From Escherichia coli (GTDB lineage: Bacteria > Pseudomonadota > Gammaproteobacteria > Enterobacterales > Enterobacteriaceae): a stretch of DNA of 64,000 bases. Made by a program: the position numbers and the translations under genes. The stretch lies in assembly GCF_030384885.1 (NCBI RefSeq), contig NZ_CP128613.1. The stretch is one strand, 5' to 3'. Of this stretch, positions 2,936-64,000 are shown piece after piece. Each line of letters begins with the position of its first letter. Within the stretch, counting starts at the first letter, position 1. Below the pieces are notes generated by a model. The model did not search any database. It worked only from the letters and a program-made list of their open reading frames with translations, and was not told where the DNA came from.

Positions 2936-4351
2936 TTATTTCAGCCCCAGGGCGGCTTTCATGGTGTAGAAGAGATCGGTCTGGTCGGTCAGTCCAACGA
3001 CATTGGCGGCATGTGGGCCATACGCCGCAATACGCAGCTGACTACCGGTATGTTCTTGTGAATCCTCTTCGGAGTTCCCGTAACTCATCACCATCACTGC
3101 GCCATCTTTGGTATTTAGCGCCTGGGTGAGGCCCGGCGCTTTGGTGTCCGGCGCGACAATCTGGCTGGCGTGGGCGTGATCAGCGGTGACTATGACCAGC
3201 GTGTTGCCATCCTTTTTAGCGAATTCCAGCGCCCGTTGTACGGCTTCGTCGAGATCGACCGTCTCGCCAATTTGCCCACAAGGATTCGCCGCGTGATCCT
3301 GTTTATCGATTGATGCACCTTCAACTTGCAGGAAAAAGCCTTTCTCATTTTTACTCAACAATTCAATGGCTTTATCAGTCATCTGCGCCAGGGTCGGTAC
3401 GCTGTCATTACGTTGCGGATTAGGCGTACAGGTAACTGCGGGCTTGTCGATATTGCCGTGGTACGTTGCTTTCGGTCCTTGCCAGCGCACTGGCATATTG
3501 CCGTCAGCAAACAGTCCTAGCAGGGGTTTTTGCTGGTTCGCTTCCGTCACCGCATTCAGTGAGGCAGCATCGCTCACCAACTGATAACCACGCGCCTGCG
3601 CCTGTTCACGCAGCGTTTTTCCCTGCCATTCACCGGCGGTTGCCGTTTCCGCAAAGGTTTTTGCGCCGCCGCCAAGCGTAACATCGGCACGGGCGTTAAG
3701 CAGCTGTTCGGTAATCGATCCTTTTCCGCCTTTTTCCAGCGCGTTACCCGGACATTTTTCACTGGTCGCGCTCGGACCGTAGCATTTGCGCGAAGTCACA
3801 TGCGCCACCAACGCGGCGGGAGTGGCATCCTGCAACTCTGCGGTAGAAACGTTACCGGTCGCCAGCCCTGCGGCTTTTGCCATTTCCAGAATCGTTGGGT
3901 GATCTTTTTCATGAATATCGACACCCAATGCGCCGTTATAGGTTTTGACACCGGTTGACCAGGCAGTTGCTGATGCAGCCGAGTCGGTAACGTAGTCCGG
4001 TTTGCCGGTTTTTTTATTCAGCGCATAGTGAGTGTATTGCCCGGTAAGCGGTAAGGCATCAATACCTTTAAAAAAGCCGCCCGCACCTTCGGCATAATTA
4101 CGTGCGGCAGTAATTTCCGAATCCCCCATCCCATCGCCAATCAGCAAAATAATATTTTTTGCAGGCTTATCGCTAAGAGAATCACGCAGAGCGGCGCTCT
4201 GATCACCCGTTAAGCGGCGAGCACCGCCGGGTGCAGTAATATCGCCCTGAGCAGCCCGGTTTTCCAGAATAGGCATTTCTGGTGTCCGGGCTTTTGTCAC
4301 AGGGGTAAACAGTAACGGTAAGAGTGCCAGTGCAATAGTGCTTTGTTTCAC
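2936..4351 (-). CDS. phoA: Alkaline phosphatase
   Basis: ORF 2936-4393; GTG start giving [21 protein letters not shown] signal peptide at 4351; 471 aa; matches PhoA from memory. Confidence 0.95.
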
Positions 4352-60618: not shown

Positions 60619-62205
60619 ATGGCACATCCACCACGGCTGAATGACGACAAACCGGTTATCTGGACGGTATCTGTAACGCGGCTGTTCGAGCTGTTTCGCG
60701 ATATCAGTCTCGAGTTTGATCACCTGGCAAACATTACCCCTATCCAGCTTGGCTTTGAAAAAGCGGTGGCCTACATCCGCAAAAAACTGGCCAGCGAACG
60801 CTGCGACGCCATCATTGCCGCTGGCTCTAACGGCGCGTACCTGAAAAGCCGCCTGTCGGTACCGGTGATTCTGATAAAACCGAGTGGCTACGATGTGTTA
60901 CAGGCACTGGCAAAAGCCGGAAAACTCACCTCTTCTATCGGCGTTGTCACCTATCAGGAAACCATTCCGGCACTGGTAGCGTTTCAAAAAACCTTTAATT
61001 TGCGCCTCGACCAACGTAGCTACATTACCGAAGAAGACGCACGTGGGCAGATTAACGAGCTAAAAGCCAACGGCACCGAAGCGGTGGTCGGCGCGGGGCT
61101 GATTACCGATCTGGCAGAAGAAGCCGGAATGACCGGAATTTTTATCTATTCTGCCGCCACCGTGCGCCAGGCATTTAGCGATGCGCTGGATATGACGCGC
61201 ATGTCGTTACGCCATAATACTCACGATGCCACCCGCAACGCCCTGCGTACTCGTTACGTGCTGGGCGATATGCTCGGTCAATCACCACAGATGGAACAAG
61301 TACGGCAGACTATTTTGCTGTATGCCCGCTCCAGTGCGGCGGTGTTGATTGAAGGGGAAACGGGGACGGGCAAAGAGCTGGCGGCCCAGGCGATTCATCG
61401 GGAATATTTTGCCCGCCACGATGCGCGACAGGGCAAAAAGTCGCATCCTTTTGTTGCCGTCAACTGCGGGGCGATTGCTGAATCTCTGCTGGAAGCGGAG
61501 CTGTTTGGCTATGAGGAAGGAGCGTTTACCGGCTCGCGACGCGGAGGCCGCGCCGGGCTGTTCGAAATTGCCCACGGCGGTACGCTGTTTCTTGACGAGA
61601 TAGGCGAAATGCCGCTGCCGTTGCAGACCCGGCTGCTGCGGGTGCTGGAAGAAAAAGAGGTCACCCGCGTCGGCGGGCATCAGCCTGTTCCGGTGGATGT
61701 GCGGGTTATTAGCGCCACTCACTGCAATCTCGAAGAGGATATGCAGCAAGGGCGTTTTCGCCGTGATCTGTTTTATCGACTGAGTATTTTGCGTCTGCAA
61801 TTGCCGCCGCTACGCGAGCGGGTGGCGGATATTCTGCCGCTGGCGGAAAGCTTTTTGAAAGTGTCACTGGCGGCACTTACTGCGCCGTTTTCTTCCGCGT
61901 TACGTCAGGGATTACAGGCAAGTGAAACTGTGCTGTTGCGCTACGACTGGCCGGGAAATATTCGTGAACTGCGCAATATGATGGAACGACTGGCGCTATT
62001 TTTAAGTGTGGAACCAACGCCGGATTTAACGCCGCAATTTTTGCAGTTGCTACTGCCGGAACTGGCGCGCGAGTCGGAGGAAACTCCCGCTCCACGTTTA
62101 CTGACGCCACAACAGGCACTGGAGAAATTTAATGGCGATAAAACAGCCGCGGCGAATTATTTAGGTATCAGCCGAACGACATTCTGGCGGCGGCTGAAAA
62201 ACTGA
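60619..62205 (+). CDS. prpR: Sigma-54-dependent activator of the prp operon
   Basis: ORF 60607-62205; start [17 protein letters not shown] at 60619; AAA+ core ([13 protein letters not shown]) and C-terminal HTH. Confidence 0.9.
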
Positions 62206-62302
62206 AATGCCGAATCCAGCGCGAACGCCTTATCCGGCATAAATTTCAATAGATGATCACCGATAAACTTACGCATCGGGCATGTTTACATGGGGTGCAG
62301 AA

Positions 62303-62762: not shown

Positions 62763-63395
62763 ATGGATCCCTTGCACGCCGTTTACCTGACCGTAGGACT
62801 GTTCGTGATGACTTTTTTTAATCCGGGAGCCAATCTTTTTGTGGTGGTGCAAACCAGCCTGGCTTCCGGTCGACGCGCAGGAGTGCTGACCGGGTTGGGC
62901 GTGGCACTGGGCGATGCGTTTTATTCCGGGTTGGGTTTGTATGGTCTTGCGACACTCATTACGCAGTGTGAGGAGATTTTTTCGCTTATTAGAATCGTCG
63001 GCGGCGCTTATCTCTTATGGTTTGCGTGGTGCAGCATGCGCCGCCAGTCGACACCGCAAATAAGCACACTACAACAACCGATTAGCGCCCCCTGGTATGT
63101 CTTTTTTCGCCGTGGATTAATTACCGATCTCTCTAATCCACAGACCGTTTTATTTTTTATCAGTATTTTCTCAGTAACGTTAAATGCTGAAACACCAACT
63201 TGGGCACGTTTAATGGCTTGGGCGGGAATTGTGTTCGCATCAATTATCTGGCGAGTCTTTCTTAGTCAGGCGTTTTCTTTGCCCGCTGTGCGTCGTGCTT
63301 ATGGGCGTATGCAACGCGTTGCCAGTCGGGTTATTGGTGCAATTATTGGTGTATTCGCGCTACGCCTGATTTACGAAGGAGTAACGCAGCGGTGA
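62763..63395 (+). CDS. yahN: LysE/RhtB-family amino acid exporter
   Basis: 210 aa polytopic membrane protein; the upstream ATGs at 62725/62728 are in a different frame and run into a stop. Confidence 0.85.
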   Translation: MDPLHAVYLTVGLFVMTFFNPGANLFVVVQTSLASGRRAGVLTGLGVALGDAFYSGLGLYGLATLITQCEEIFSLIRIVGGAYLLWFAWCSMRRQSTPQISTLQQPISAPWYVFFRRGLITDLSNPQTVLFFISIFSVTLNAETPTWARLMAWAGIVFASIIWRVFLSQAFSLPAVRRAYGRMQRVASRVIGAIIGVFALRLIYEGVTQR

Positions 63396-63520
63396 GCAGA
63401 TAATTTACTCTCTACGTAATCAACCTGATTTGCCGAATCCCGCTCATCGGCGATGATACCCCCCGTAATGCGTGGTCCTTATTTCCGATAAGTTTACTTG
63501 AGTCTTTAGCTTCCCATTTC

Positions 63521-63550
63521 AGCCCACTCTCCCCTGTGTGGGCTTTTTTC
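63521..63550 (+). terminator. Rho-independent terminator downstream of yahN
   Basis: AGCCCAC-TCTCCCCTGT-GTGGGCT hairpin followed by TTTTTTC. Confidence 0.55.
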
Positions 63551-63641
63551 ATTTGTCTGCTTCAGTGAGTAGCTGGCAATGCTCCATCCACTCTGCAAGG
63601 ATGATAATAAGAGGATCTGATTCAGAAGAGTTTTGAAAAAT

Positions 63642-63722
63642 TGGACCGCCATCGAGGCCTCGAACCCCGTACCATACAACAATCCTGGTTGTCGTCTGCT
63701 CTTCCTGATGAGCTAATGGCGG
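63642..63722 (-). ncRNA. tRNA-like element with atypical anticodon region (possible tRNA pseudogene or tRNA-derived RNA)
   Basis: Minus strand: perfect 7-bp acceptor stem CCGCCAT/ATGGCGG, U8, D-arm GCTC-ATCAGGAA-GAGC, T-arm CGGGG-TTCGAGG-CCTCG, discriminator plus encoded CCA. About 5 nt too long between the D and T arms; anticodon loop lacks U33. Confidence 0.3.
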
Positions 63723-64000
63723 TTTGTGATATGAGCCTTACAGCATATTGTCTGTCAGGCTTGAGTGCGATGCGTAAGATACAGAAAAGACCCCACACAA
63801 ACATGATGGAATTATGATTTTTTTCATATGAATGTCAACCAACACATTCATAAAACACTCGCACAAGTTCACTTTTTAAGCAACATGACGCCGATCACAA
63901 CAAAATATCGGCGAAAAAGGAGGGTAAATGCCATTTGACGTGGAGATAAGCAGATGAAATGATTACCCGCTTTGCGATTCACTCTCTGATGGAATAACAA

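Follow-up and report, generated by a model that had tools for sequence, protein, structure and literature searches.

In K-12, yahM (b0327) stands beside yahN as the gene of an uncharacterised 81-aa protein. The question raised by the DNA analysed here, a window of 64,000 nucleotides, is whether this interval encodes a protein at all and, if not, of what it consists. At its end, the window carries the K-12 prpR-yahO-yahN-yahM-yahL region in reverse complement, with 100% identity to Escherichia coli 2013C-4282 (NZ_CP027579). The yahM/yahN locus is found in 5,174 of 5,426 complete E. coli genomes; compared with K-12, mean column identity over the aligned locus is 92% and the neighbours prpR-yahO-yahN are unchanged. 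The original prediction described, at the yahM position, a short and possibly decayed ORF and offered two readings of it, namely that yahM is a pseudogene here or that it is not a real gene. The features on which our analysis rests are collected in Table 1. Window coordinates equal those of the locus taken from NZ_CP027579 (L001) plus 60299, and the span annotated there as frameshifted is L001 3113-3353.

Table 1. Features of the yahN-yahM-xtpA region in window coordinates, with strand and source of the assignment.
Feature	Coordinates	Strand	Source
yahN, LysE-family exporter, 210 aa	62763-63395	+	ORF list, annotation of identical genome
yahN 3'UTR, the sense strand of the yahM C-terminal half	63396-63520	+	
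Intrinsic-terminator-like hairpin, 7-bp stem, 10-nt loop, then T6; 125 nt past the yahN stop	63521-63549	+	
46-aa ORF MKKAHTGESGLKWEAKDSSKLIGNKDHALRGVSSPMSGIRQIRLIT, C-terminal remnant of K-12-type yahM, antisense to yahN 3'UTR and terminator	63412-63552	-	ORF list, alignment
yahM homologue 5' part, 48 codons ending out of frame (MAVQFFKTLLNQILLLSSLQSGWSIASYSLKQTNEKSPHRGEWAEMGS*), ATG 63652-63650	63506-63652	-	
Pseudogene, 'hypothetical protein, frameshifted'	63412-63652	-	PGAP annotation in 100%-identical NZ_CP027579
Indel zone relative to K-12: +4 (TGGA), -7 (TTGTTTG), -2 (GG), net -5 nt	63553-63596	-	alignment
81-nt tRNA-like element	63642-63722	-	fold, models, phage argN homology, conservation
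xtpA ORF, 60 aa, intact, leaderless-type, contains the tRNA-like element	63622-63804	-	ORF list, K-12 comparison
Sigma-70 promoter-like site, TTGACA-16 nt-CATAAT, 11/12 matches	63811-63838	-	promoter scan

Results

yahM is split by a frameshift in the lineage of the window

The 46-aa minus-strand ORF of the original prediction is present in the ORF list and represents residues 36-81 of the 81-aa YahM with four substitutions; the length given earlier for the K-12 protein, 81 aa, is that found in K-12-type annotation. Its spacing to yahN is that of K-12, as had been claimed: the yahN stop ends at 63395 and 16 nt lie between the two (the earlier count of 17 is 63412 minus 63395), in agreement with the K-12-like genome L002, where yahN ends at 3096 and yahM starts at 3113. 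The in-frame stop reported 12 nt upstream of its ATG is TGA 63564-63562, which falls inside the indel zone. When the alignment with K-12 yahM was run and the region re-read, a full-length YahM frame was not recovered: the 81-codon K-12-type frame is not intact in the window and is split into frames of 48 and 46 aa. The net loss of 5 nt and the 'frameshifted' flag set by PGAP both bear out the pseudogene reading. This allele is found at at least 99% identity in 18 independent complete genomes and is thus a real lineage variant, assembly or sequencing error being ruled out as the source of the frameshift. The finding of a frameshifted yahM is in itself correct and ordinary.

Two further observations concern the neighbouring genes. 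Between 62725 and 62765, the window is 1 nt shorter than K-12 directly before ATG 62763 (ACT ATG in K-12, AC ATG in the window). Because of this lost nucleotide, the 13-codon N-terminal extension of K-12 yahN is out of frame, and yahN, starting at 62763, encodes 210 aa in the window and 223 aa in K-12; either the extension is not real or YahN is shortened in this lineage. Between prpR and yahO, a REP-like element lies on the minus strand (62166-62239), with a match to the Rfam family naRNA4 that, at 25.7 bits, stays below the gathering score of 59.5.

The C-terminal half of yahM lies antisense to a predicted yahN terminator

The opposite-strand hairpin and T-tract noted earlier inside the 46-aa ORF were confirmed, with a folding energy of -13.3 kcal/mol (z = -2.1). 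The arms AGCCCAC (63521-63527) and GUGGGCU (63538-63544) form a stem of which 5 of the 7 pairs are G-C, and the T-run extends to 63549. The consensus terminator scan did not call this hairpin because its 10-nt loop exceeds the 8-nt loop limit of the scan. Its 29 nt are identical (29/29) in E. coli and the SCPM lineage and nearly so in E. albertii (27/29), where the changes are in the loop only. These properties fit a predicted intrinsic (Rho-independent) terminator of yahN. The 3'UTR that precedes it, i.e. the C-terminal half of yahM, is 29-91% identical to K-12 across three non-E. coli Escherichia lineages and contains 1-nt indels; for the stretch 63396-63520, identity in other Escherichia is 83-91%. 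The 46-aa ORF is the antisense of the yahN 3'UTR and predicted terminator. Because the U-run is present on the plus strand only, minus-strand transcripts should read through the hairpin, and yahM-yahN appears in a published list among the 165 convergent excludons of MG1655.

A tRNA-like element within xtpA overlaps the start of yahM

Upstream of the indel zone, NC_000913.3 annotates xtpA (b4845, 60 aa), the ORF of which runs across an 81-nt tRNA-like element. XtpA of the window is identical to that of MG1655 at 58 of 60 residues, the differences being K19Q and K27Q. As far as its reference goes, RegulonDB v12 (PMC10767902, ref 25) traces xtpA to Muto et al. 2022 (J Biochem 171:459). The -10 hexamer CATAAT of the promoter-like site ends 7 nt before the xtpA ATG at 63804, a geometry which would fit a transcript starting at the ATG itself, and the site is 86-100% conserved across Escherichia. 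Reg-seq has described a 'yahM' promoter as active and repressed by IHF; its supplements give no coordinates for yahM. 'yahM' has also been detected in a published small-RNA-enriched pool. In strains N24 (L132) and CUVET21-PYO5 (L134), yahL is absent and yahK adjoins directly. Both strains keep promoter and tRNA-like element, which argues that the two form a unit independent of yahL.

In the element, the 7-bp acceptor stem is free of mismatches, the D arm has G18G19, the loop of the T arm reads UUCGA and the 3' U-CCA is encoded. The canonical 5-bp stem and 7-nt anticodon loop are absent; in place of the anticodon arm, a stem of 7 bp closed by a loop of 6 nt is predicted, leaving the element without a usable anticodon loop. 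A cloverleaf is predicted for the isolated element (z = -3.3) and also in the context of a 245-nt transcript. The last 11 nt of the element are covered by K-12 yahM, the start codon of which lies inside it. The Rfam tRNA model (RF00005, gathering threshold 29 bits) gave no match on 63625-63740 (116 nt) even at E<=10, whereas a true phage argN, taken as control, scores 53.6 bits; we therefore call the element tRNA-like and not a tRNA. Otherwise, Rfam families produced only sub-threshold chance matches at the locus, a terminator look-alike at 63501-63551 and a snoRNA fragment.

Conservation of the tRNA-like element and of XtpA across Escherichia

The element is identical at 81/81 positions in K-12, the window, E. 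albertii, E1V33 and SCPM-O-B-8794. Outside E. coli, loci were retrieved by exact match to a 33-nt pattern from the element; 33 of these 81 nt are therefore fixed by the search and only the other 48, identical throughout (48/48), are free of ascertainment bias. For the same three non-E. coli lineages, identity to K-12 is 80-88% in the leader, 35-81% in the spacer (the N-terminal half of yahM) and 72-91% in the coding end of yahN. A single variant of the element was seen, in O157:H7 (L130), where a T-stem G.U pair becomes G-C. As far as comparison of sequences can tell, this pattern suggests selection on a tRNA-shaped RNA at the locus.

The same 81 nt could instead be kept for the C-terminal half of XtpA and not for RNA structure. 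Indeed, xtpA is annotated in MG1655, the window as well as most of the sampled E. coli have its full ORF, and the lone substitution in O157:H7 is synonymous in the xtpA frame. Going by the title of their 2022 work, Muto, Goto, Kurita, Ushida, Soma and Himeno reportedly describe xtpA as a leaderless mRNA with a tRNA-like sequence and an encoded peptide that affects GcvB. However, E. albertii and SCPM-O-B-8794 keep all 81 nt despite a stop at codon 4 of xtpA. In E1V33, 9 of the first 27 XtpA residues differ, while the 27 xtpA codons that fall in the element show zero synonymous differences. The O157:H7 change that leaves the peptide intact is also the one that converts the G.U pair to G-C. Beyond Escherichia, a metagenomic relative (L154) reads the element in a different frame, since its start-to-core distance is 84 nt and not 82; the Klebsiella and Citrobacter-type copies have no upstream start codon in any open frame; and covariation is present in the acceptor stem across the tRNA-like family. 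We thus regard it as unlikely that the peptide is what has been kept, and selection on the RNA remains the preferred reading.

Evidence for and against a YahM protein

Homologues of YahM are confined to E. coli and Shigella (61 clusters, 45-131 aa); several clusters are mosaics of different frames and read the hairpin region in different frames. YahM has no family match in Pfam, PHROG or NCBIfam. Could yahM be a genuine young, E. coli-specific small-protein gene, of which the lineage of the window merely carries a recent pseudogene allele? Of about 5,100 genomes, most have the 81-aa frame unbroken, under the PGAP name YahM, against only 18 with the window allele; a GAGG motif lies 5 nt before the ATG, and the yahM promoter is active and regulated. 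Substitutions within the gene speak against this. Seven in-frame alleles have 17 polymorphic sites, spread 6/7/4 over the codon positions, with 3 synonymous and 15 non-synonymous changes; in this small sample (17 sites, 7 alleles), pN/pS is about 1.5, equal to that of the other two frames, and there is neither a third-position excess nor an excess of synonymous over non-synonymous change.

The frame itself has, within E. coli, been disrupted independently at least three times. O157:H7 (NE122, L130) has TAG at yahM codon 12, and PGAP calls a shorter 69-aa 'hypothetical protein' instead; an A6 to A5 frameshift is found in CUVET21-PYO5 and in ED1a/83972-type proteins (three CFT073/ED1a-like strains). 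Outside E. coli, the ORF from the yahM-equivalent ATG has 11 aa in SCPM-O-B-8794, 17 aa in E1V33 and 31 unrelated aa in E. albertii, i.e. these lineages are without a yahM ORF, though E. albertii and the SCPM lineage keep the DNA of its C-terminal half with 1-nt indels, as would be expected of a yahN 3'UTR with its terminator and not of a reading frame. In addition, the yahM ATG and its GAGG motif sit inside the T arm and 3' acceptor strand of the tRNA-like element, within a stable cloverleaf, and maintenance of the frame within one shallow species is expected from descent alone. A genuine yahM gene is in our judgement quite unlikely, and the second reading of the original prediction, that yahM is not a real gene, finds support in the same comparative evidence. 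We infer that yahM makes no functional protein and is, in the window, a frameshifted and probably non-coding ORF antisense to the yahN terminator.

Similarity to phage argN and relatives in other genera

Identity between the element and argN, the middle gene of the ileZ-argN-argO cluster of lambdoid and Stx phages (cluster names are those of phiP27 and related records), is 76-84% across about 89 nt. As judged from this similarity, the element is a descendant of the argN tRNA of these phages, the central region of which has been replaced, so that the UCG anticodon in a canonical loop is absent. The match to phage DNA is restricted to the element and about 10-24 nt upstream. At the argN position, Stx2 phages have a true tRNA-Arg(UCG), and phiP27 and several other coliphages have an unannotated degenerate form. 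The commonest degenerate argN of prophages is without the UUCGA T-loop and has GCGGGUC instead (L004 and about 30 IMG/VR loci, e.g. L014, L022 and L025); this loss looks like decay, unlike the chromosomal copies.

Other candidate traces of a prophage around the element found no support. YahL as a Q antiterminator, and thereby a remnant of a prophage late region, was rejected: it has no Pfam or PHROG match and no similarity to real Q. Local alignment against shuffles gave p = 0.94 (K-12) and 0.95 (window) for the 80-nt leader as an ileZ remnant, and p = 0.26 (K-12) and 0.07 (window) for the spacer, i.e. the yahM N-terminal half, as an argO remnant, so that neither similarity is significant.

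A metagenome scan returned relatives of 73-81 nt with central hairpins closed by 4-7-nt loops. Across the family, four acceptor-stem pairs have changes on both sides; invariance of the D arm and T loop among the relatives is uninformative because both are fixed by the search pattern. In Enterobacter, Citrobacter and Scandinavium, some of the relatives belong to prophage clusters situated downstream of Q. Others stand alone. Copies in the Klebsiella oxytoca complex lie between a DsbD-family gene and leuO, with a core identity of 96-99% and a 5' flank of 62-82%, and two copies adjoining blaSED are 100% identical in the core and 67-72% in the flanks. We take blaSED to be a Citrobacter sedlakii gene, and presume on this basis that the DNA adjoining it is of Citrobacter origin. 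Neither the Klebsiella nor the blaSED-linked stand-alone copies have an XtpA-like ORF. No conserved neighbour gene of the element was found; contexts differ between genera and the core alone is common.

Several individual relatives deserve description. The closest to the E. coli element (76/81) is L154 604-693, on a 1.2-kb metagenome contig, which shares the -10/start motif TCATAATTCCATCATG, the remaining leader being unrelated. The Enterobacter hormaechei IncC plasmid p3-20710 (L138 2504-2620) carries a 75-nt tRNA-like gene with its own intrinsic terminator, mobilised together with blaSED and a LysR regulator onto this conjugative resistance plasmid. In prophages L147 and L152, an ORF for a 274-aa protein with a CdiA-CT RNase A toxin domain (PF18431, E = 1e-31) lies between Q and a tRNA(CAU)/tRNA-like/tRNA-Thr cluster, on the opposite strand and ending about 260 nt upstream of the cluster; at the equivalent spot, prophage L142 has a KAP P-loop NTPase. 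A link of the tRNA cluster to RNA-targeting toxins or defence is possible.

Descent from argN also invites the explanation that the element is a functionless, neutral fossil of a decayed prophage tRNA cluster. Homology to the argN position of lambdoid ileZ-argN-argO clusters agrees with this, as does the decay-like absence of the T-loop from many of the degenerate prophage copies. Yet a fossil would have to account for 81/81 identity (48/48 outside the pattern) in three lineages, next to flanks that are 80-88% identical or unalignable, and for the recurrence of the same excess of core over flank identity in the Klebsiella oxytoca complex and in the two blaSED-linked copies, where the core is all that the loci have in common. 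Neutral retention is, in view of these comparisons, very improbable. Finally, a working tRNA-Ser(GGA), which is how ARAGORN labels the element (63642-63722, minus strand) and with which its intact acceptor, D and T arms and CCA end would agree, is rejected on the silence of RF00005 and on loop geometry (a 6-nt loop on a 7-bp stem, among relatives with loops of 4-7 nt), the long variable arm of serine tRNAs also being absent, and has next to no probability. E. coli genomes annotated by ARAGORN-based pipelines may therefore show a spurious serine tRNA at this position.

Discussion

We consider it likely that the yahM interval is the overlap of two convergent transcription units and not a protein gene. 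Its plus strand would supply yahN with a 3'UTR and an intrinsic terminator. Its minus strand would be the downstream, read-through part of an xtpA transcript which would arise at a strong sigma-70 promoter, start at or near the xtpA ATG and carry the tRNA-like element. K-12 'yahM' would then be a run of 81 codons that is open by chance: it would begin in the final 11 nt of the element, cross a spacer that evolves fast and end in sequence antisense to the terminator and 3'UTR of yahN. Neutral indels in this spacer would have split it in the lineage of the window, leaving the 46-aa ORF. The frameshift, the anatomy of the locus and the pattern of conservation were observed in this analysis. The activity of the promoter and the overlap of yahM and yahN transcripts enter the model from the literature, and so, within what the title and the citing entry convey, does the leaderless and peptide-encoding nature of the xtpA mRNA.

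What is selected at this locus is, we infer from the comparisons above, a tRNA-shaped RNA. A broader proposal is that the RNA itself is selected as a member of an undescribed family of anticodon-less, CCA-ended tRNA-like RNAs, which would derive from the middle tRNA of the late-operon clusters of lambdoid prophages, would have been fixed independently in Escherichia (between yahL and yahN) and in the Klebsiella oxytoca complex (between the DsbD-family gene and leuO), would also occur beside blaSED, and would act as non-decoding mimics, yahM and perhaps xtpA being incidental. We put this forward tentatively, holding it to be a real possibility though with a little more doubt than belief. More doubtful is whether the tRNA-shaped RNA would be matured by tRNA-processing enzymes into a stable, non-decoding tRNA mimic.

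These results bear on how the locus is annotated. Thousands of E. coli genomes, as well as y-ome lists, still count yahM (b0327) among the proteins, and it would be better treated as a doubtful ORF. Where transcriptomic studies assign signals to 'yahM', their more probable source is the xtpA/tRNA-like transcript, together with the read-through of this transcript antisense to yahN. If conservation does act on the RNA and not on the XtpA peptide, the contributions of RNA and peptide to the published GcvB phenotype need to be separated, and a domesticated family of phage tRNA mimics in enterobacteria becomes testable. The existence of xtpA with its tRNA-like element is already published; the family-wide comparison may be new, as a lead rather than a result. 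Our search of the literature on ileZ/argN/argO and on pseudo-tRNA or tRNA-like RNA found nothing relevant.

The locus can be set beside several known systems. To yahM of K-12, it is alike in position, in the 16-nt gap to yahN and in the C-terminal 46 codons, but it differs by the net -5 nt frame break, after which the first 48 codons enter a different frame. With convergent excludons, yahM-yahN shares the overlapping 3' ends of convergent genes. In comparison with the xtpA (b4845) mRNA of K-12, the window has the same locus and the same element and no structural difference; where it goes outside the title of Muto et al. 2022 is in the comparative data, which suggest that the RNA rather than the peptide is selected. 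With the argN tRNA-Arg(UCG) found upstream of stx, the element has in common the acceptor stem and the CCA end, both without a difference, as well as a few bases of the spacer upstream, but it differs by the replaced anticodon arm, a D-loop shorter by 1 nt and the lack of an RF00005 match. Examples of pseudo-tRNAs and tRNA-like stable RNAs, which may be regulatory, are tRNA-Other of Bacillus cereus and, in the tRNA cluster of phage T4, the stable RNAs C and D. The element may be likened to them, by way of resemblance only, as an RNA that is likewise tRNA-derived, non-decoding and found near phage tRNA genes.
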